Assembly: GCA_963593735.1 (NCBI GenBank)
Contig: CAVBBF010000002.1
Coordinates: forward strand, 17,762 to 81,761
Direction of reading: 5' to 3'
Source: Phascolarctobacterium succinatutens
Lineage (GTDB): Bacteria > Bacillota > Clostridia > Christensenellales > CAG-917
DNA length: 64,000 nt
The position numbers and the translations under genes are program-made. Position 1 is the first letter of the stretch, and every line of letters starts with the position of its first letter. Below are positions 8,485 through 31,050 of this stretch, in pieces. The notes under the pieces are model-generated. The model saw only the letters and a list, made by a program, of their open reading frames with translations, was not told the origin of the DNA and ran no database searches.

Positions 8485-9423
8485 TCACTCTAATTTCGTG
8501 CCGATTTCGACGTTTCTGCCGAGCAAAAAAGCATTGTCGCTCATACGTTTTCCGCCTTCGAGTTGAATCTCTAAGAGCCTGACAACGCCGTCTGCGACCT
8601 TTACGAACAATCCCTCTTTCGCAGAGGATTTGACGACTTGTCCGAACTCGAAAGAATCGACGTTTTCGACGTTGCAATCCGCCTTTTCGACTTTGAAAAC
8701 TTTGAGTGATTTTCCGAAAACGTGCGTAAACGCCGACGGCCACGGAGACATACCTCGCACAAAACAATCGATTTGACGAGCGGTTTTTGAAAAGTCGATG
8801 TTGCCGTCCCCTTTACTTATCATCGAGCAATGCGTCGCTTTGCTTTCGTCTTGCGGCACGAACACGGCTTTTCCGCTTTCGACAAGGGATATCGCCTCGC
8901 AAATCGCCTCGCCGCCGAGAATCGCGAGTCTGTCGAACAACTCGCCTGCCGTTTCGTCTTTTCCGATGGGCGTTGCTTTTTCAAGCAAAATATCGCCTGC
9001 GTCCACCGCCTTTACCGTGCGCATAATGGTTATGCCGCTTTGTTCGTCGCCGTTGATAATGGACCATTGAATGGGCGAAGAACCTCTGTATTTCGGCAAA
9101 AGCGAAGCGTGTACGTTGAGTACGCCGAATTTCGGAATCGCCAAAAATCTTTCGCTCAAAATCTGACCGAACGCCGCCGTAACGACGATGTCGGGATTGA
9201 GATTTTCAATGTCCTCTATGCCCTCTCTCGACACTTTTTCGTACTGTAAAACGGGTATCGAGAGTTCTTGCGCCTTGACTTTGAGCGCAGAGGGTTTGAG
9301 TTGGTATCCTCGCCCGACGGGTTTGTCGAGACCTGTCACGACTGCTGACACCGAATATACCGAATTAAGTTTTTCAAGCACCGTCGCCGAAAAGTCGGGA
9401 CTGCCCATAAACACGATTTTCAT
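8485..9423 (-). CDS. fmt: Methionyl-tRNA formyltransferase
   Basis: 312 aa, MKIVFMGSPDF...NVHASLLPKYRGSSPIQ. Confidence 0.9.
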   Translation of the reverse strand: MKIVFMGSPDFSATVLEKLNSVYSVSAVVTGLDKPVGRGYQLKPSALKVKAQELSIPVLQYEKVSREGIEDIENLNPDIVVTAAFGQILSERFLAIPKFGVLNVHASLLPKYRGSSPIQWSIINGDEQSGITIMRTVKAVDAGDILLEKATPIGKDETAGELFDRLAILGGEAICEAISLVESGKAVFVPQDESKATHCSMISKGDGNIDFSKTARQIDCFVRGMSPWPSAFTHVFGKSLKVFKVEKADCNVENVDSFEFGQVVKSSAKEGLFVKVADGVVRLLEIQLEGGKRMSDNAFLLGRNVEIGTKLE

Positions 9424-9964: not shown

Positions 9965-12139
9965 TCAAATCAAACTTTGCGGATTGATTTCGACAAACAC
10001 GTTGCATTTTTTCGACTTATTTTGGTCGGCGATTTTGTATATTTCGCCGATAATATATTCAAATTGTTGCGGCTCTATCCTCATCATCACCTGATAGCGG
10101 CAAAGACCGTTCATACGCGTGACAGGCGATTTGCTTGCGCCCAAATATACGAATTTTCCGCTTTGCGATTGCAGATTCTGAACGGATTTATACACGTTTC
10201 TCGCCGCGTCCACAACGTCTTGTTCGTTTACGGACGACAAAAGCACTCGCACGACTTTCGTAAAAGGCGGAAATTTTGTCACCATTCTCGTGTTGATTTC
10301 CTTTTTCCAAAAGCCTATGTAGTCGTACGTTCTGCCGAAGCGGAAAACGTAATGTTTGGGCGCATAGGTTTGAAGAATGACTCTGCCCTCTTTTTCCGCT
10401 CTGCCCGCTCTGCCGGCAACCTGCGTGATGAGTTGGAAGGTGCGCTCGCTCGATCGATAATCGCTGAAATACAGCGCAGCGTCCGCTTCGAGAATCCCCA
10501 CAAGCGTGACGTTTGCGAAGTCGTGACCTTTTGCAATCATTTGCGTGCCGACAAGCACGTCGGCTTCCTTGTTGCCGAATGCGGAAAGAATCTTGAAATA
10601 ACTGTCCTTTCTCACGGTCGTGTCGTTGTCCATACGCAGAACTCTGACGTTCGGAATGAGATTTTTCAGTTCTTCAACCACCTTTTCCGTGCCGACTCTG
10701 CCCTGTTTTATCTCATGACTGCCGCAGTTTGGACACTTGGTCAAAGCGTGGTATCTGCGACCGCAATAGTGGCATTTTAGTTCGTTGTCTTCCTTATGAT
10801 AAGTCAACGATATGTCGCAATCCTCGCACTTTGCGATATATCCGCATTCTTTGCAGCGGATAAAGGACGCAAAGCCTCTGCGATTGAGAAAGAGCATAGC
10901 CTGCTCGCCTTTTGTGACGGTTTCTTTGAGAGCCTCTTGCAAAGCAAGAGAAAACAGACTGCGATTGCCTTGTCTGAACTCTGCCGTCATATCCACGATT
11001 TCCATTTCGGGAAGTTTGTGTTTGGATATTCTTTCGGGCAGGGATATAAGCCCGTACACGCCTTCGGTCGCTTTGAGATAGGTTTCCATATCGGGCGTAG
11101 CAGAGCCGAGAATAAGCACGCAATCGTTTGCTTTTGCGCGATATTCCGCAATGGTTTTTGTGTCGTAACGAGGATTGGATTCGGACAAATAACTCGTGTC
11201 GTGTTCCTCGTCGACAATGATTGCGCCTATGTTTTCGAGGGGTGCGAAGATTGCCGATCTTGCGCCTATTGCGATGTGCGCTTTGCCGGTTTTGAGCCTT
11301 TTCCACTCGTCGTAGCGTTCGCTTGCGTTAAGTCCGCTGTGAAGTATCGCAACGTCGTCGCCGAATCTTGCCCTGAACAATCCGAGCATTTGCGGCGTAA
11401 GCGAGATTTCGGGAACGAGCATAATCGCGGTTTTGCCTTTTGCAATCATACGCTCTATCACGCACTCGTACACTTCGGTTTTGCCGCTTCCGGTAACGCC
11501 GTGCAAAAGGTAGGTTCCCTTTGCGCCGCAGAGCGTTTCAACCGCGCTCGTCTGCTTGTTTGTGAGAACAACGTTCTTTTTCTCTTTTTGAAGAGTTTTT
11601 AGCGGCGTTGAACGCTCGTGTACGTCGCTTTCGGTCACAACGCCCTTTTCACGCAATCCGTTTATTGCGCTCACGCCGAATTTGACATTCAAAAAACTCA
11701 AAAACTGTCCGCCGTTCGAGGCGATATAGTCGAGAGCCTCTTGTTGCTTTTCCGCCCTCTTTCCGACGACTTCTTTAAGCTCGGCAAGCGTTCTGGAATC
11801 GTCGGCGGTGAGAAATTTCCTCGTATATTCGGGGTCTTTTTCCTCGCGAAGTTGCTGAGGAACAAACAAGCGCAAAACGTCGATATAGCGCAGATTGTAC
11901 GTCTTGCGCATAAAGTTCATAAGCCCCAACTGCTCGGGACTTATGGGCGAATCGAGATATTGCGCTTTTTTGATGTCTTGAAATTCCGACTTGTCTTTTT
12001 TGCCTATGACAAAGCCGATAAGTCTCTTTTTTCCGAACTCGACAACCACTCTGCTGCCTATCGGCACGTCATCGCCGATATAATCGAAAGTCCTGTCCAC
12101 GTCGCTGTTGGAGATGTTGACGATGACTTCCAAAATCAT
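9965..12139 (-). CDS. priA: Primosomal replication protein N' (PriA helicase)
   Basis: 724 aa with GVTGSGKTEVY, a DEEHD box and a Cys-rich Zn-binding insert (CKECGY..CEDCD..CHYCG..CPNCG). Confidence 0.9.
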   Translation of the reverse strand: MILEVIVNISNSDVDRTFDYIGDDVPIGSRVVVEFGKKRLIGFVIGKKDKSEFQDIKKAQYLDSPISPEQLGLMNFMRKTYNLRYIDVLRLFVPQQLREEKDPEYTRKFLTADDSRTLAELKEVVGKRAEKQQEALDYIASNGGQFLSFLNVKFGVSAINGLREKGVVTESDVHERSTPLKTLQKEKKNVVLTNKQTSAVETLCGAKGTYLLHGVTGSGKTEVYECVIERMIAKGKTAIMLVPEISLTPQMLGLFRARFGDDVAILHSGLNASERYDEWKRLKTGKAHIAIGARSAIFAPLENIGAIIVDEEHDTSYLSESNPRYDTKTIAEYRAKANDCVLILGSATPDMETYLKATEGVYGLISLPERISKHKLPEMEIVDMTAEFRQGNRSLFSLALQEALKETVTKGEQAMLFLNRRGFASFIRCKECGYIAKCEDCDISLTYHKEDNELKCHYCGRRYHALTKCPNCGSHEIKQGRVGTEKVVEELKNLIPNVRVLRMDNDTTVRKDSYFKILSAFGNKEADVLVGTQMIAKGHDFANVTLVGILEADAALYFSDYRSSERTFQLITQVAGRAGRAEKEGRVILQTYAPKHYVFRFGRTYDYIGFWKKEINTRMVTKFPPFTKVVRVLLSSVNEQDVVDAARNVYKSVQNLQSQSGKFVYLGASKSPVTRMNGLCRYQVMMRIEPQQFEYIIGEIYKIADQNKSKKCNVFVEINPQSLI

Positions 12140-24732: not shown

Positions 24733-25317
24733 TCAGATTTCGCTGTTGTCGTCGCTACCATTGTTGCCGTCAGCAAAGAACGATATGTTTTCTTGATCGG
24801 CAGGTTCGGAATTTATATCCTTGATTGCAAGAGTTTTTAGCACGCCGCTCACACATCTAAAAACGGCAATAGCCAAAATGACAAACGCACCGATCAAAAG
24901 CGTCGGATCCGTTCCGCTCTGCACAAAATCGAATATCGCCCCGATGAGGAAGATGCCGGTTGCGGCATAGTTGAAGCCTTGCGCGATTTTGAGTTGGCGC
25001 AACGATTGCTTGATGCTCTGCGCGTCTTTGTTGACGGATTTGAGGGAAATCACAGTGCCGACAAGCGAGAAAATGACCGCACACAAGCATATTATACCGA
25101 GCAAAATTGCAAGTATGCCGAAAAGGCTCGTCGCAAATGCGCGCGCAACGTCGGCGGTTGCGCCTTCAATCGTGCCGTCACCCTCCGTCGGGTCGGCGTT
25201 TAACAAAAGCACCCCCGTGACGAAACACGCAATTGCAAGCCCGACATATGCAACCGTGCTTAGCAAATCCAACACGCCCGACGCTATAATCTTTGGTCTC
25301 GATTTCGAATATTTCAT
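24733..25317 (-). CDS. Hypothetical integral membrane protein
   Basis: 194 aa with 4-5 hydrophobic segments and an acidic C-terminal tail (EPADQENISFFADGNNGSDDNSEI). I recognise no family. Confidence 0.5.
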   Translation of the reverse strand: MKYSKSRPKIIASGVLDLLSTVAYVGLAIACFVTGVLLLNADPTEGDGTIEGATADVARAFATSLFGILAILLGIICLCAVIFSLVGTVISLKSVNKDAQSIKQSLRQLKIAQGFNYAATGIFLIGAIFDFVQSGTDPTLLIGAFVILAIAVFRCVSGVLKTLAIKDINSEPADQENISFFADGNNGSDDNSEI

Positions 25318-25513
25318 ACAAACCTCTTGACTATCGAATATTTTATAAAATTATTATATCATCTTCTTTACGCATTGTAAATAAATAAAAATCTACGTCG
25401 TTTTAGTACGCTTGCAATACTTTAACCGCAATTTCAGCATAGATTTCTTGATTAAAATATGTGACACTTTATGTGACAGAATACAGCGGAAACGGGCGGA
25501 AAATCAAACACAT

Positions 25514-25544
25514 AAAAAAACAAAAACCCCACTAAACAGTAGGG
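25514..25544 (-). terminator. Intrinsic terminator closing the tRNA-Ser/repeat unit
   Basis: On the minus strand, a CCCTACT-GTTT-AGTGGGG hairpin (one mismatch) followed by TTTTTGTTTTTTT. Confidence 0.6.
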
Positions 25545-25561
25545 TTTTTGCACTTTGTTGC

Positions 25562-26352
25562 GGAGAAGATGTAAGTCGTTGCTATGCAACAAACATCTCT
25601 TTGCTCCGCAGGTCACCTGCCAGCGTAGACAATCCTGCAATGCTTCGCATTTTTACTTTTTCTTATGCTCGCAAACTCGTGCAAGCACGGTTGCGGACAG
25701 AAGAAGATGTAAGTCGTTGCCTTGCAACGAACATCTCCTTGCGCCGCAGGCTAAGAAGAGATTCGCCAATCAGCGAAGCGTGTGTGCTTGCACACATAGC
25801 GGAGCGTGCAACGAAGAGTTCGGCAACACAGTTGCCAACGGCATGAGAAATGCCGTTGAATCTCTCTTCTCCTTCTCTGCTTTTTGAAGAAGATGTAAGT
25901 CGTTGCTTTGCAACGAACATCTCTTTGCTCCGCAGGTCTCCTGCCGTCGTAGACAATCCTGCAATGCTACGCATTTTTGCTTTTCTTATGCTCGCAAACT
26001 CGTGCAAGCACGGTTGCGGCCAGAAGAAGATGTAAGTCGTTGCCTTGCAACGAACATCTCCTTGCGCCGCAGGCTAAGAAGAGATTCGCCAATCAGCGAA
26101 GCGTGTGTGCTTGCACACATAGCGGAGCGTGCAACGAAGAGTTCGGCAACACAGTTGCCAACGGCATGAGAAATGCCGTTGAATCTCTCTTCTCCTTCTC
26201 TGCTTTTTGAAGAAGATGTAAGTCGTTGCTTTGCAACGAACATCTCTTTGCTCCGCAGGTCTCCTGCCAGCGTAGACAATCCTGCAATGCTTCGCATTTT
26301 TGCTTTTTCTTATGCTCGCAAACTCGTGCAAGCACGGTTGCGGACAGAAGAA
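25562..26352 (-). repeat. Tandem composite repeat A1-B1-A2-B2-A3 (323-bp period), candidate structured-RNA array
   Basis: A units are about 132 nt (25562-25693, 25886-26016, 26209-26340) and differ at a few positions. The B units 25699-25885 and 26022-26208 read identical over 187 nt. Core hairpins lie at 25562-25612, 25700-25750, 25886-25936, 26023-26073 and 26209-26259. Strand was inferred from G-U pairs. Confidence 0.75.
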
Positions 26353-26382
26353 AAAGCAACCCTACGGGTTTCGCAGGATTGC
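26346..26382 (-). terminator. Hairpin plus U-tract immediately after tRNA-Ser
   Basis: On the minus strand, GCAATCCTGCG-AAACC-CGTAGGGTTGC followed by TTTTTCTTCT. It contains two G-U pairs that would be A-C mismatches on the plus strand. Confidence 0.6.
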
Positions 26383-26389
26383 CTTTCGG

Positions 26390-26482
26390 TGGCGGAGAAG
26401 AAGAGATTCGAACTCTTGAACCGCTTTTGACGGTTACGCGATTTCCAGTCGCGCGCCCTCGACCAAACTAGGCGACTTCTCC
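26390..26482 (-). tRNA. tRNA-Ser (anticodon GGA), class II with long variable arm, CCA encoded
   Basis: Folded by hand from the reverse complement. Acceptor stem GGAGAAG/CTTCTCC; D stem GCC/GGC. Anticodon stem CGCGA/TCGCG with loop CTGGAAA. Variable arm AACCG-TCAAAAG-CGGTT; T arm AAGAG-TTCGAAT-CTCTT. Discriminator G followed by CCA. Confidence 0.9.
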
Positions 26483-26488
26483 GTTTTT

Positions 26489-26538
26489 TGGTGGGAAGTC
26501 GAGGTTTGGTACGCAGTACCATTAAACACGACTTCTCC
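26489..26538 (-). ncRNA. tRNA-like minihelix / pseudo-tRNA fragment in the tRNA-Ser leader
   Basis: Minus strand: GGAGAAGTCGTGTTTAATGGTACTGCGTACCAAACCTCGACTTCCCACCA. The first 10 nt are identical to the tRNA-Ser 5' end. The 5' arm GG(A)GAAGTCG pairs with the 3' arm CGACTTCC, with one bulged A. There is an inner hairpin GGTAC-TGC-GTACC and a 3' ACCA. It does not fold as a cloverleaf. Confidence 0.3.
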
Positions 26539-26575
26539 ATAAGTTATATTTAATTATTTTAGTTGCTATACAAGT

Positions 26576-26643
26576 GGGTGGCAGTTGGAAGCGAATGGAA
26601 AACAAAACCATTTCCTCCAACTGTTCACGGGGTACTGCTACCC
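26576..26643. other. Long imperfect hairpin in the tRNA-Ser leader
   Basis: The outer arms GGGTGGCAG (26576-26584) and CTGCTACCC (26635-26643) enclose the hairpin TTGGAAGCGAATGG-AAAACAAAA-CCATTTCCTCCAA. The strand of function is ambiguous because the wobble evidence is mixed. Confidence 0.4.
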
Positions 26644-26661
26644 TCAAAACCCAACGTGACG

Positions 26662-26690
26662 ATTATATATCAACAAAGCGATTTTGACAA
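26662..26690 (-). promoter_or_regulatory. Near-consensus sigma-A promoter of the tRNA-Ser unit
   Basis: On the minus strand, TTGTCA (26690-26685), a 17-nt spacer, then TATAAT (26667-26662). Confidence 0.6.
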
Positions 26691-26882: not shown

Positions 26883-28244
26883 ATGGGCAATCTACTTGGC
26901 GCAACCGCCGACCCTGACCCTCTCAGTACCATTTTATCGTCAATTTTTATAGTTGTTCTTATTTTGTTTTCGGGATTTTTCTCGGCAACGGAAACCGCAT
27001 TCAGTTCGGTCAACAGGACAAAACTCAAATTGAAGGCGCAAGACGGCAACAAAGCCGCGCAAAATGCGATGTATCTTCTTGACAAATTCGACAAACTGCT
27101 CTCGACGATACTTGTGGGAAACAACCTTGTCAACATCACTTTGTCAATCCTTTTCAACAATATATTTGAAAATGTTATAACCGATGCGGCGGTCAGCGGC
27201 GTTGTGTCGGTCGCCGTGTCGACAATCATTGTCCTGACTTTCGGTGAAATCACGCCGAAGATGGTCGCGAAGGAGAACTCCGAGCGAATTTGTCTTGCGT
27301 TTGGCTATCCTATCCGCGCGATAATGGTGCTTCTCTACCCGATCACCATTATATTTGCCGGCTTGAAATTATTGCTCAAAAAGATATTCAAATCCCACGA
27401 CGACGACAAGATAACCGAAGAGGAACTGCTCTCTATGGTGGAAGAGGCGCAAGAAGACGGAGCGCTTGACTCGCAAGAGAGAGAACTCATATCCAGCGCA
27501 ATCGAGTTTGACGACTGCGAAGTTGCCGACATCCTCGTGCCAAGAGTCAACGTCATAGCCGTGCCGACAAATATGGCAATGGAAAAAATCAAATCCATGT
27601 TCCTCGAATACAACTATTCGCGCTTGCCGGTGTACAAGGATTCTATCGATCAAATCGTCGGCATGATTCACAACATAGACTTCTTCACCGCCCTCGAAAA
27701 AGGCGACAAAAGTATAAAGAACTACATCACGCCCGTTGCGGTCGCCACCGAGCATATGAAAATATCCGCATTGCTCAAAAGTATGCAACGCCAAAAAGTG
27801 CATATGGCGGTTGTCGTCGACGAGTACGGCGGTACACTTGGCATAGTCACCCTCGAAGACATACTCGAAGAACTCGTGGGCGAGATTTGGGACGAACACG
27901 ACGAGGTGGTCAACTACGTCACCAAAGTGGACGATGAAAACTATCTCGTAGACGGTCGCGCGGAGCTAGACGATTTCTTCAAGGAATTTAACGTGGACGA
28001 GGACGAAACCGAAAACTTCGATTCGCAAACAGTCAGCGGCTGGGTCATCGAGCAGTTCGGCGAGATTCCCAAAAAATCGCAATCTTTCGATTTCAAGAAT
28101 CTGACCGTTGTCGTAAACAAACTCACCGCACGCAAAATCATAGAAATAAAAGTGCATATCAATCCTGTGTCCGACGACGAAAACGAACAAGAACAAAAGT
28201 TCAAACTCTTCGACAAGCACGACAAAGACGAGAATACAGACTGA
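26883..28244 (+). CDS. CNNM/HlyC/CorC family transporter (DUF21 + CBS pair + CorC_HlyC)
   Basis: 453 aa with an N-terminal 4-TM DUF21 domain ([12 protein letters not shown]), a CBS pair and the C-terminal transporter-associated domain ([13 protein letters not shown]). Confidence 0.85.
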
Positions 28245-29427: not shown

Positions 29428-31050
29428 TTACTTCAAACTTCTCACCGTGTAGCCTTCTTTGGCAAGCACTCGAAGTTGAAGGTTGAGTTGGTCGATAAAC
29501 TCCTTGTTTGACGTTGTTTTGACAATCATGCCGATGAGATTTTCGGTGGCTTCGGCATTGTCGGTGTTAGACAAAATCTTGCGAATACCCCAAGTGCCTT
29601 CGAGTTCGCTGGGCGTAAGGAGCAACTCTTCCTTTCTCGTGCCGCTCTTTGCGAGGTCGATTGCAGGGAAAATTCTCTTTTCGCTAAGTCTGCGGTCAAG
29701 GTGAATTTCCATATTGCCCGTACCTTTGAATTCCTCGAAAATTACGTCGTCCATGCGGCTGCCCGTGTCGATAAGCGCGGTTGCGATGATTGTGAGCGAG
29801 CCGCCGTTTTCGATGTTTCTTGCCGAGCCGAAGAAGCGTTTGGGGCTATGGAGCGCGCCGGGATCGATACCGCCCGAGAGCGTTCTGCCCGTCGGCGGAA
29901 TTGTAAGATTGTACGCGCGCGCAAGCCTTGTGAGCGAGTCGAGCAAAATCACAACGTCTTTGCCCATTTCCACGAGGCGTTTTGCTCTTTCCAAAAGCAT
30001 TTCCGCCGTTTTGGTGTGGTGTTCGGGAAGTTCGTCGAAAGTGGAATAGACAACTTCACCCTTTATCGAGCGTTGCATATCGGTGACTTCTTCGGGGCGT
30101 TCGTCGATGAGCAAAACTTTGAGCTCGATTTCGGGATAATTTTTTGCAATGGAGCTTGCAATCATCTTCAAAAGCGTGGTTTTACCTGCTTTCGGCGGCG
30201 AAACGATTATACCTCTTTGACCTTTGCCGATTGGCGAAACAAGGTCGATGCAGCGAGTTGCGTATTCTCTTGGCGAAACTTCGAGGCGGATGCGCTCGTT
30301 GGGATAGATAGGCACGAGGTCGTCAAAGTTGGGACGTTTGCCCACTTTGTCCGCATCGATGCCGTTTATCGTCGTAACGCTCACGACTGCGGACGGTCTG
30401 CCCTCTTGCACCTTTTTGCAAAGAGAAGTCACATAGTCGCCTCTACGCAAACCGTATTGTTTGATTTTCATTGCCGAGACGTAGGCGTCCATTTCGTTGA
30501 ACTCGCCGTTTTTCACGCGCAGAAAGCCGTATCCGTCGGGATTGATTTCAAGATATCCCTCTCTGATTTGCTCACTGTCATCGTTATCTGTGCGCTCTGC
30601 AAGGACGTTTTCACGCACATTCGTCGCCTGATTTTGAGAGCGATATGCGTTCTGTCTTTGATTGAAATTTTGATTTCTGTTTTGTTGATATTGATTCTGA
30701 TTGCGGAAAGTCGGTTGGAATTTTGGCTTTTCAAAACCTTTGGGAAGCGGCGTATCGTTGTTACGTTCGACCGTGGGCGCAGGCGATGCGGTGAGAACTT
30801 CGACGTATTGACGCTCGGGCTTGCTTTCGCTTTGCGGCTGAGCCGCAACTGTCGTTTCTGCGGACTTTTTGGGTCTGCCTCTGCGCGGCGCTTCGGGGGG
30901 TGTCATCTCACCGTTTGTGATTTTGTACACCAAATCGACGAGGTCGGCTTTGTTGAGTTTCGTCGGTGCGCTCACTCCTACGTCTTTTGCGAGGGCGCGC
31001 ATCTCGAAAATGCTTTTTGCCTCCAACTCTTGTTTCGAGAATTTTTGCAT
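29428..31050 (-). CDS. rho: Transcription termination factor Rho with N/Q-rich N-terminal insertion
   Basis: 540 aa with an N-terminal Rho_N helix bundle, a CSD (GYGFLR), the P-loop PPKAGKTT and conserved C-terminal motifs. An insert of about 110 aa lies between Rho_N and the CSD. Confidence 0.95.
   Translation of the reverse strand: MQKFSKQELEAKSIFEMRALAKDVGVSAPTKLNKADLVDLVYKITNGEMTPPEAPRRGRPKKSAETTVAAQPQSESKPERQYVEVLTASPAPTVERNNDTPLPKGFEKPKFQPTFRNQNQYQQNRNQNFNQRQNAYRSQNQATNVRENVLAERTDNDDSEQIREGYLEINPDGYGFLRVKNGEFNEMDAYVSAMKIKQYGLRRGDYVTSLCKKVQEGRPSAVVSVTTINGIDADKVGKRPNFDDLVPIYPNERIRLEVSPREYATRCIDLVSPIGKGQRGIIVSPPKAGKTTLLKMIASSIAKNYPEIELKVLLIDERPEEVTDMQRSIKGEVVYSTFDELPEHHTKTAEMLLERAKRLVEMGKDVVILLDSLTRLARAYNLTIPPTGRTLSGGIDPGALHSPKRFFGSARNIENGGSLTIIATALIDTGSRMDDVIFEEFKGTGNMEIHLDRRLSEKRIFPAIDLAKSGTRKEELLLTPSELEGTWGIRKILSNTDNAEATENLIGMIVKTTSNKEFIDQLNLQLRVLAKEGYTVRSLK

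Follow-up and report, generated by a model that had tools for sequence, protein, structure and literature searches.

The window analysed here is a 64,000-nt stretch of genomic DNA, in which a gene for tRNA-Ser(GGA) on the minus strand is preceded by a promoter and a structured leader and followed by tandem composite repeats. The following features were delineated, given here in the order of the tRNA-sense strand.

26662-26690, minus strand: sigma-70-type promoter for the tRNA (TTGTCA-17-TATAAT; 11/12 matches in the scan)
26571-26654, minus strand: leader element L, an outer 5-bp stem around hairpin 1, which varies, and hairpin 2, which is invariant and has 15 bp
26489-26538, minus strand: minihelix M, a hairpin (-20 kcal/mol, z = -4.5)
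26390-26482, minus strand: tRNA-Ser(GGA) with encoded CCA end (ARAGORN; Rfam RF00005, 54.2 bits against a threshold of 29)
26347-26389, minus strand: Q, predicted intrinsic terminator with a 16-bp stem (26387-26351, -22.3 kcal/mol), then UUUUUCUU
26335-26352, minus strand: copy of the tRNA 3' end where Q meets X, TTCTTCTGTCCGCAACCG
26260-26343, minus strand: X1, made up of two hairpins, one long and one small, and of the tRNA CCA end plus trailer in inverted copy (26285-26267)
26209-26259, minus strand: H1, conserved hairpin module
26074-26208, minus strand: Y1, three hairpins; ends in CGAATCTCTTCTT, which equals the tRNA T-loop plus the T-stem 3' segment
26023-26073, minus strand: H2, forming a hairpin of -30.3 kcal/mol with the tRNA 3'-end copy at 26028-26011
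25937-26019, minus strand: X2
25886-25936, minus strand: H3
25751-25885, minus strand: Y2
25700-25750, minus strand: H4, then a tRNA 3'-end copy (25705-25688)
25616-25696, minus strand: X3
25557-25612, minus strand: H5 and the last tRNA 3'-end copy, TCTTCTCCGCAAC at 25569-25557
25509-25562, minus strand: Z, predicted strong intrinsic terminator closing the variable region (14-bp stem 25551-25520, then a T run)

Most elements listed above had been described in the initial annotation, and the description largely held. The near-consensus promoter lies at 26690-26662; both of its hexamers are kept in 11 related loci, and alignment is lost upstream of -35. The structured leader hairpin corresponds to L (26654-26571), and the 178-nt leader as a whole folds with -54.6 kcal/mol (z = -4.5). 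L is 90-100% identical in all 12 relatives extending to it; its hairpin 1 has GGGTA/TACCC in this genome versus GAGAG/CTCTC in two relatives (L092 and L100). A search of L against Rfam gave no match. We rejected a leader peptide or attenuation mechanism in L, as the small ORF is not conserved and the TCC serine codon is lost in L092.

The tRNA-like minihelix that had been proposed upstream of the tRNA, M, is indeed a hairpin and its 5' strand repeats the first 10-11 nt of the tRNA. Its CCA mimicry did not hold up, since the ACCA tail is present only in this genome while the relatives carry ACAA or other tails; M was thus rejected as a CCA-ending tRNA mimic. Also rejected was the notion that M is an inverted copy of the tRNA 5' region: significance was reached for the identity at its 5' side, but not when its 3' half was compared with the tRNA reverse complement (p = 0.08-0.27). 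The number of M copies varies from zero to four among relatives, and in L009 the copies are arranged in tandem with a 58-nt period.

The tRNA occupies the interval originally assigned to it (26482-26390). It is 100% identical in 10 mapped related loci, and the tRNAs of L111 and L112 match it over the full length. The hairpin with U-tract reported after the tRNA is also real, albeit with a stem of 16 bp rather than 11 bp. In this element, Q, the conserved hairpin with its U-tract lies 3 nt past the tRNA. Across 12 sequences we counted 36 G·U versus 3 A·C cells in Q, and therefore Q folds on the tRNA-sense strand. Q and Z both consist of a hairpin followed by a U-tract, as expected of intrinsic (Rho-independent) terminators predicted from sequence. 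The majority of tRNA transcripts probably end at the Q hairpin, and the single 1.15-kb transcription unit of the initial annotation is putative.

Downstream of the tRNA, Q together with the first X and H modules forms a trailer with extensive predicted structure. The X1 stem shows compensatory change in 8 of 12 pairs, and X1 can pair with 26392-26373 in a 19-20-bp duplex (-24 to -29 kcal/mol) in 11 loci. The resulting Q-X rod has ~60 bp per arm and includes pairing with the tRNA's own CCA end. Covariation was observed at 13 of the 51 pairs of Q-X-H, a number matched by none of 500 shuffles, with slid controls giving 0-5 pairs; the covarying pairs fall in the X hairpin, in the small hairpin and in the long-range helix that includes the tRNA CCA end. 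The full trailer folds with -90 kcal/mol (z = -8.65). The H hairpins are imperfectly paired; a 3-nt bulge in them is conserved whereas the loop varies, and their identity across species is 90-100% (mostly 94-100%). In L090, H is a perfect 26-bp helix, GGAGAAG…CTTCTCC-GCCA, i.e. a tRNA-Ser acceptor-stem minihelix; this acceptor pairing is not conserved across relatives. Counts of G·U versus A·C cells were 13 versus 0 in H, where the signal comes mostly from one inherited pair, and 3 versus 8 in the X hairpin. The covariation, along with the placement of tRNA-end copies in long hairpins, suggests selection on a folded single strand, be it RNA or DNA. We consider L and Q-X-H to be candidate new structured elements without an Rfam family.

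The ~790 bp of tandem composite repeats reported earlier were recovered by TRF at 25564-26352 (period 323, 2.4 copies, 96% matches). The repeat unit is composite, the modules following each other in the order X H Y H X H Y H X H; H (51 nt) occurs in five copies versus zero expected by chance. Module H folds into a hairpin that encloses one such copy of the tRNA 3' terminus. Module Y has a homologue in a viral contig, L103 (nhmmer E = 6.6e-11), and shows compensatory change in its first hairpin. The H-X, Q-X, H-Z and Y-H junctions hold copies of TCTTCTTCTCCGCCACCG or CGAATCTCTTCTT (p <= 0.004 versus shuffles), which amounts to four tRNA-end copies of 13-18 nt and two 13-nt copies from the T-loop side in the window. 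An exact 15-nt copy of the tRNA end lies 3' of H in L090 and L111 as well, and all junctions have a TCTTCTT tract in common. Thus, the proposal that the flanking modules mimic the tRNA was, if anything, understated: M repeats its 5' 10-11 nt, and the junctions hold its last 13-18 nt. The GC content of the array is ~50% versus 33-42% in neighbouring spacers. A scan of the array for internal promoter-like sites found none. The second hairpin, described at the end of the array, is the 14-bp stem of Z with its T run; Z is also found 3' of the last cassette in three relatives (L090, L094 and L111).

The interval appears to be non-coding, as had been stated. There are ORFs on both strands of the array; however, the period of 323 bp is not a multiple of three and breaks the frame, and indels distinguish the homologues. 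In other assemblies, the ORFs predicted across the array lack Pfam domains, and a protein search with a 103-aa array ORF returned only seven spurious ORFs. An Rfam search of the region in both gathering and E-value modes, which had been suggested as a check, passed no family besides tRNA; specifically, T-box, Clostridiales-1 and type III antitoxin families gave nothing at the gathering threshold. The best scores for other families were 38.4 versus 55 bits (terminator region) and 19.9 versus 48, and the matches to rnk_pseudo and Clostridiales-1 were driven by terminators or hairpins. A dispersed repeat or MITE family was rejected as well: the modules are absent elsewhere in the window and in 80 CNNM loci of other species, and all 12 real metagenome matches to H lie at the tRNA-Ser locus.

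For comparison we used 13 related loci from uncultured Christensenellales-like gut bacteria, eleven of which extend to the tRNA. All eleven keep the tRNA, the promoter, L, Q, X and H, so that conservation of the locus beside the tRNA, which had been left to be checked, is now observed. The surroundings of this core are variable: 1-5 X-H or Y-H units lie downstream, and the number and order of M, X-H and Y-H differ from locus to locus. Between species the modules are 87-100% identical versus 65-92% (DNA) for flanking genes. Later X copies and Y copies lose pairing in some loci, and L098 has a Y/H fusion at TTCGTTGCA, a deletion at microhomology. The genes neighbouring the loci include those for CNNM, Rho, MerR and an aldo-keto reductase, among others. 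Conserved synteny with the CNNM gene was rejected, as the closest other species (L008, protein 91% identical) has neither tRNA nor array there.

An assembly artefact had been named as a possible source of the repeat. The array is not artefactual in kind, as the Y-H-containing unit is present 1.4 times in L001 and twice in L006, which are independent assemblies of the same species. Further contigs end within the repeat. Because assemblies differ and contigs break in the repeat, the exact copy number in this genome, given above as 2.4, is not secure.

In some relatives foreign DNA is inserted at the junctions described above. Foreign DNA adjoins AATCTCTTCTTCTCCGCCA in L096 and also in L109, a viral contig of IMG/VR; in both, Q and X come next, and L096 alone continues with the remainder of the array. 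This junction is a predicted attR at the tRNA core, the end of a prophage. The 926-aa gene beside the L096 junction has weak Pfam and PHROG matches only, and we consider it viral because of contig L109.

Cassettes were observed in seven relatives. In L090, L094, L097 and L111 the cassette begins directly after the H-embedded core (…CTTCTTCTCCGCCA and then the cassette), and in L092 after the Q-side core; L098 and L112 carry cassettes too. Most cassettes are co-oriented with the tRNA, and they are mostly single-gene; they have their own promoters, and their cargo includes GmrSD, a restriction-modification system and a beta-lactamase-fold protein. Most of them end in a 21-nt motif, ATTCGATTTACGTTACTAAYG, followed by CTCCGCCA and a terminator, this end being degenerate or partial in L111 and L112. 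The same 29-nt cassette end is present in three viral contigs, one with a serine integrase (L103) and another with a LexA-like repressor. The sequence after the core in L103 is matched by the left end of the L111 cassette and by that of the second cassette in L090.

Only Y and the 29-nt cassette end were found in viral contigs. A phage origin of X, H, M and L was rejected, with no exact pattern match in IMG/VR and no blastn match in GenBank phages. Nor did pattern searches of IMG/VR or the search of GenBank phages return an intact element with an H-core-X attachment site. No recombinase domain was detected by Pfam within ~6-10 kb of the locus in L001, L004, L111 and L112.

The best explanation we can offer, with roughly even chances of being right, is that the tRNA 3' end serves as an attachment site and that the 790-bp array is a gene-less, strain-variable stack of pseudo-att sites and cassette remnants. 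Two properties of integration hotspots were observed, direct repeats of the tRNA 3' end delimiting segments and foreign elements at these repeats in relatives; a third, a cognate integrase at the locus, was not found. The proposed course of events would be as follows. A chromosomal tRNA-Ser(GGA) gene with its own promoter, structured leader and strong terminator would offer its 3' end to temperate phages and to small elements lacking an integrase, within this clade of gut Clostridia. An element that inserts site-specifically at a tRNA 3' end duplicates that end; further rounds of integration, together with internal deletions and unequal crossing-over, would turn the region behind the tRNA into a mosaic. 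A clade integrase would recombine a site containing TCTTCTTCTCCGCCA; we infer that a recombinase acting in trans made the tRNA-end copies and that the array is mostly untranscribed. In every locus reaching it, Q-X-H closes with a hairpin that holds the tRNA 3' end a second time, and beyond it lies a strain-variable number of further X-H and Y-H units, the latter looking like gene-less remnants of a phage-derived cassette. The array would then end at the ancestral terminator Z, and the landing pad in this genome would be one without cargo.

Several observations do not sit well with the att-site explanation. Simple scars would be expected to degrade, but H retains 90-100% identity across species and compensatory changes preserve the Q-X stems. 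The copies lie in long hairpins, with 26 perfect bp in L090, which are unneeded at ordinary tyrosine-integrase sites. M repeats lie 5' of the tRNA, where integration at the 3' end leaves nothing. The known model does not account for the hairpin-embedded att copies, the conserved and covarying leader and trailer, and the tandem minihelices on the 5' side of the tRNA.

These features could be read differently if the tRNA is co-transcribed with a structured non-coding RNA, of which at least the trailer Q-X-H and perhaps the whole array works as RNA. We regard such an RNA as rather unlikely, and the same holds for the roles it might have: a domain for processing or RNase III punctuation, an sRNA from the 3' external spacer, or minihelices serving as decoys for enzymes that recognise the tRNA-Ser acceptor end. 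It would agree with the covariation in X (8/12 pairs), the small hairpin and the helix with the tRNA CCA end, with the stability of the trailer, with the elevated GC content of the array, with the acceptor-stem minihelix with GCCA in L090 and with closure of the array by Z on the same strand. Still, a conserved 16-bp terminator separates the tRNA from everything downstream, and the scan saw no internal promoter. The bias of G·U pairs to the tRNA-sense strand in Q and H also favours an RNA, but in H it comes mostly from the single inherited pair and the X hairpin is without it. Copy numbers vary freely (M 0-4, X-H or Y-H 1-5), later X and Y copies lose pairing, and no Rfam family matches.

The imperfect hairpins with conserved 3-nt bulge and variable loop, an X structure conserved while its sequence changes, unit boundaries at the 3' base of the H hairpin and the co-oriented, mostly single-gene cassettes of the relatives could alternatively indicate folded single-stranded DNA recombination sites like integron attC, in a tRNA-anchored, integron-like platform served by a recombinase in trans. 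This we hold to be improbable: neither an IntI-like nor any other recombinase adjoins the array in L001, L004, L111 or L112, and the R''/R' consensus (RYYYAAC … GTTRRRY) is absent from all H copies read. The gene cassettes, which have their own promoters, carry no hairpin site of their own because the motif and core at their end have no complementary strand upstream. Slightly less doubtful, though still unlikely, is a landing-pad role for Q-X-H, in which a folded strand (RNA or DNA) would pair with the CCA end of the tRNA and present a second, hairpin-embedded tRNA 3' end, so that phages and defence-gene cassettes accumulate without disrupting the tRNA while the recombinase acts in trans. Read in this way, Q-X-H would be, at the same low probability, a tRNA-anchored cassette-capture platform, integron-like in logic. 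Finally, the array might be neutral junk from fold-back repair or slippage at a fragile polypyrimidine tract (TCTTCTT) or, in a related version, an assembly artefact. The tract shared by all junctions, the copy number varying within species, contigs breaking in the repeat, deletions at microhomology such as the L098 fusion and the decay of Y hairpins in some copies all point in this direction. We give this little credence, as the modules are better conserved between species than flanking genes and the sequence upstream of the promoter is unalignable, the compensatory changes are significant and the same architecture is found in at least 13 independent assemblies.

If the att-site explanation holds, the locus would serve as a compact marker, easy to recognise, for a hotspot of defence genes and prophages in uncultured Clostridia of the human and animal gut, and att copies kept as long hairpins would depart from the usual picture of att scars. 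Should L and Q-X-H work as RNA, this would be a rare bacterial tRNA gene with regulated or structured flanks; a function as folded DNA would point to a non-integron recombination system that depends on hairpins.

Mosaics of short hairpin-forming modules with variable internal unit number are known from the pneumococcal BOX A-Bn-C and enterobacterial BIME/REP elements, which are scattered through a genome at tens to hundreds of places; the present modules, unlike those, were found only at the tRNA-Ser locus (in the 64 kb, the 80 CNNM loci and the metagenome matches). Functional tRNA spacers exist, e.g. the 3' external transcribed spacer of the E. coli glyW-cysT-leuZ operon, and RNase P minihelix substrates have been derived from tRNA-Ser. 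The present locus similarly has structured sequence beside a tRNA, with M starting with the tRNA 5' end and H of L090 reproducing the acceptor stem and GCCA end. It differs in having a terminator between tRNA and array and in that neither the CCA tail of M nor the acceptor pairing of H is conserved across relatives. Integron arrays and CALINs likewise have co-oriented cassettes each followed by an imperfect hairpin site, a structure more conserved than sequence (as in X) and boundaries at the hairpin base; here, in contrast, IntI and R''/R' boxes are absent, a tRNA 3' end takes the place of attI as the anchor, and the gene cassettes have a linear 29-nt end and their own promoters.

The initial annotation held that no described system matches this arrangement. 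We cannot uphold this, as relatives carry a prophage end and cassettes at these junctions, and there are good descriptions (PMC5704250, PMC3146451) of tRNA and tmRNA genes trailed by tandem segments that have direct repeats of the gene 3' end at their borders. Decayed elements lying in tandem between att repeats, including ICESt1/CIME accretion, have been reviewed (PMC5704250). In the Dehalococcoides ssrA islands a 20-bp 3'-end repeat follows a conserved 15-bp motif, and a serine integrase is involved (PMC3146451). Unlike in tandem islands and CIMEs, the segments in this window are gene-less and only 136-190 bp long, long conserved hairpins enclose the 3'-end copies, Q-X-H as the first unit covaries and occurs wherever a locus extends to it, hairpin repeats derived from the tRNA 5' end lie upstream, and no integrase was found at the locus. 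In common with them, a small-RNA gene heads a variable region, copies of the gene's 3' end mark off the segments, remnants without an integrase persist and the cargo is adaptive or defence-related. The likeness to the ssrA islands extends to a short conserved motif just upstream of the repeat (15 bp there, 21 nt here) and to a serine recombinase, found here in a related mobile contig. Thus, the locus has about an even chance of being an unusual version of a known kind of hotspot, and not a new RNA system.

The tRNA-Ser(GGA) locus is best read as an unusual form of a known kind of locus, the tRNA-anchored integration hotspot with 3′-end repeats. It lies in a spacer of 1,566 bp; the features in and around it, in window coordinates, are as follows.

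24733-25317, minus strand: gene of a 194-aa membrane protein, one flank of the spacer
25551-25520, minus strand: 14-bp terminator (Z), consensus scan
25564-26352: tandem array, period 323, 2.4 copies, 96% matches (Tandem Repeats Finder)
26390-26482, minus strand: single tRNA-Ser(GGA) gene (T), ARAGORN and Rfam in agreement
26571-26654, minus strand: leader element (L), 90-100% identity in 12 related loci
26690-26662, minus strand: promoter TTGTCA-17-TATAAT (P), consensus scan
26883-28244, plus strand: divergent CNNM/CorC gene, the other flank

On the minus strand the modules follow in the order P, L (84 nt), M (a minihelix of 50 nt), T, Q (a terminator hairpin), the array units X H Y H X H Y H X H (X of ~84 nt, H of 51 nt, Y of 135 nt) and Z. 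The anatomy described in the initial annotation (promoter, leader, minihelix, tRNA, hairpin, tandem repeats and end terminator) is borne out by the scans. The GC content of the array is ~50%, as in coding DNA, with 33-42% in the adjoining spacers, and both strands of the array fold far better than shuffled sequences (z = -6.6 for the tRNA strand and -4.8 for the opposite one). An Rfam family explaining the whole region, a possibility raised at the outset, did not emerge: the search in E-value mode gave no credible further match. Near the locus we also observed the Rho factor gene (29428-31050, minus strand; 540 aa in total), which encodes a long N-terminal Q/N-rich insertion.

The initial claim that tRNA-mimicking modules flank the tRNA agrees with the presence of copies of both tRNA ends. 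M and the tRNA share their first 10-11 nt; a 3′-end copy, TCTTCTTCTCCGCCACCG, is found at each H-X, Q-X and H-Z junction, and Y ends with CGAATCTCTTCTT, both being significant in comparison with shuffles. As the 5′ strand of H is complementary to the 3′-end copy, H and its flank are predicted to form a hairpin of -30 kcal/mol; in the related locus L090, the pairing of H is perfect over 26 bp (GGAGAAG…CTTCTCC-GCCA) and reproduces the tRNA-Ser acceptor stem with discriminator base and CCA. Q and X make a rod, whose outer helix pairs the CCA end of the tRNA itself and a further 17 nt with an inverted copy located after X, at -24 to -29 kcal/mol in 11 loci; coordinated changes are seen in this helix (CCTGC/GCAGG, CCTAC/GTAGG, CTTAC/GTAAG; CCACC/GGTGG versus CCAAC/GTTGG).

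Judged by flanking proteins, the host belongs to an uncultured gut lineage with ‘Firmicutes bacterium CAG:238’ as the nearest species representative, further relatives being labelled Christensenellaceae or Clostridia MAGs. Related loci came from a metagenome scan with the H pattern (12 real loci) and from look-ups of spurious ORFs (two more); their flanking genes have 65-92% DNA identity to those of the window. Conservation among relatives, which the initial annotation had proposed to check, holds for a part of the locus. The tRNA is 100% identical in ten mapped related loci, with a full-length match also in L111 and L112, and P, L, Q, the first X and the first H are kept in every locus reaching them. 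All other modules differ: X-H or Y-H units number 1-5 per locus, in differing order, and M has 0-4 copies (four in L009, as a 58-nt tandem), a freedom which argues against an essential role of M. Within the species, some contigs end in the middle of the repeat, and the others have the Y-H-containing unit in 1.4 or 2 copies. L008, the nearest of the other species when judged by CNNM (91%), carries neither tRNA nor array at the corresponding position. The modules are absent from the rest of the 64-kb window and from 80 loci with CNNM in other species. In a contig of another species (L100, 5640-5842) an own short X variant forms with H a 126-nt tandem of at least three units; thus, X-H tandem amplification also arose independently.

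The stretch 25456-25548 of the window (Z and DNA just downstream) is 90-94% identical to L090 10115-10207 and L094 8179-8270, while identity drops to ~65% in the 194-aa gene beyond it, a contrast that points either to exchange of the entire hotspot by recombination or to a strongly constrained spacer. In L111 (2521-6686), genes for a Y1 (IS200-type) transposase and for a TIR-NTPase defence-like protein of 1175 aa are inserted between Rho and CNNM, ~3-7 kb from the tRNA locus, so variability extends to the opposite flank of the tRNA.

In relatives, cassettes of genes are inserted at array junctions. Foreign DNA stops at AATCTCTTCTTCTCCGCCA in L096 and in L109, a viral contig of IMG/VR, and is followed there by Q and X (L096 adds further X-H units); judging from sequence, this boundary is attR at the tRNA core. 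Cassettes start immediately after the H-embedded core in L090, L094, L097 and L111 and after Y in L096, L093 and L112; in L092 a 1.75-kb cassette is located between two Q copies. Most run in the direction of the tRNA from promoters of their own and finish with ATTCGATTTACGTTACTAAYG, then CTCCGCCA, then a terminator; the end motif is degenerate or partial in the L111 and L112 cassettes. Among the cargo are GmrSD, a restriction-modification system with two methyltransferases, beta-lactamase-fold, HNH and unknown-function proteins. The 21-nt motif, ATTCGATTTACGTTACTAAYG, stands directly before CTCCGCCA and a terminator at the following positions.

L090: 10225-10243 and 11410-11428
L092: 924-942
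L094: 8143-8161
L096: 5160-5178
L098: 4225-4243
L102 (viral contig): 1752-1773
L103 (viral contig): 8501-8522
L104 (viral contig): 10133-10154

Degenerate ATTCGATTTACGTTACTAAYG copies are present in L024, L027, L111 and L112. The conserved ATTCGATTTACGTTACTAAYG motif lies at the end of unrelated cargo genes, in chromosomes and IMG/VR viral contigs alike, and resembles the arm that an element would contribute to an attachment site. Since Z comes after the last core copy in the window as well as in cassette-bearing genomes, it is probably the sequence that ancestrally lay downstream of the tRNA.

The 29-nt cassette end has one copy in each of three viral contigs; L103 encodes a serine integrase and a TIR-domain protein, another contig a LexA-like repressor and an anti-restriction protein. 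The L103 sequence after the core is matched by the left ends of two cassettes, the second one of L090 and the one of L111, which thus resemble strongly reduced prophages that retain attL and attR intact. L103 (IMG/VR UViG 3300045988_176260; relevant stretch 500-810, reverse complement) has a Z-like terminator after GTCCGCCAAC and, after a core copy (TCCGCCAC) and a terminator, the Y module, with a compensatory change in Y's first hairpin. Either L103 is a prophage contig that extends into the hotspot of the host, or these modules are part of the phage.

The most likely explanation of the array, we infer, is its origin from attachment sites. The tRNA 3′ end would serve as the attachment site and be duplicated by integration; decay and unequal crossing-over would afterwards produce short segments stacked one behind another, every one closed by a pseudo-attachment site, and the window array would be a cargo-free, recently amplified state of this stack. 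M repeats 5′ of the tRNA are not expected from 3′-end integration. Nor does this origin explain the presence of Q-X-H in every locus reached and its compensatory change: 13 of 51 pairs are changed on both sides (4.9 ± 1.6 in shuffles, with 0 of 500 reaching the observed value), pairing is 96% (34-49% in slid controls), and 8 of the 12 pairs of the X stem covary. Counts of G·U versus A·C (36 versus 3 in Q, 13 versus 0 in H) favour the tRNA-sense strand; X has no such preference by this count. In the leader element, an invariant 15-bp hairpin, CAGUUGGAGG…CUUCCAACUG, accompanies a first hairpin that varies in sequence with pairing retained; L has no Rfam family match, and upstream of the promoter the sequence is unalignable in species sharing L. 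The compensatory change in Q-X-H, the strand bias of Q and H and the conservation of L with pairing kept therefore point to selection on a folded single strand.

This strand may be RNA, acting as a processing or stability domain or as an sRNA, or it may be DNA, acting as a hairpin recombination site. As to the single transcription unit of roughly 1.15 kb proposed in the initial annotation, the tRNA is followed after 3 nt by a conserved hairpin of 16 bp and its U-tract, and the consensus scan detected no promoter-like site inside the array; most transcription probably ends at ~26347. Still, the conserved long-range Q-X helix would form only in read-through RNA, so some read-through past Q may occur.

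What is unusual for a hotspot is that attachment copies are held in hairpins, with a structured leader and trailer and with minihelix repeats on the 5′ side. The initial annotation was right about tRNA mimicry; its statement that no described system matches gives way to published tRNA-anchored hotspots. The stack of decayed segments proposed here resembles the way in which decayed elements accumulate at tRNA genes (PMC5704250). The likeness is especially close to the ssrA islands of Dehalococcoides, where a conserved 15-bp motif precedes a 20-bp 3′-end repeat and a serine integrase is involved (PMC3146451).
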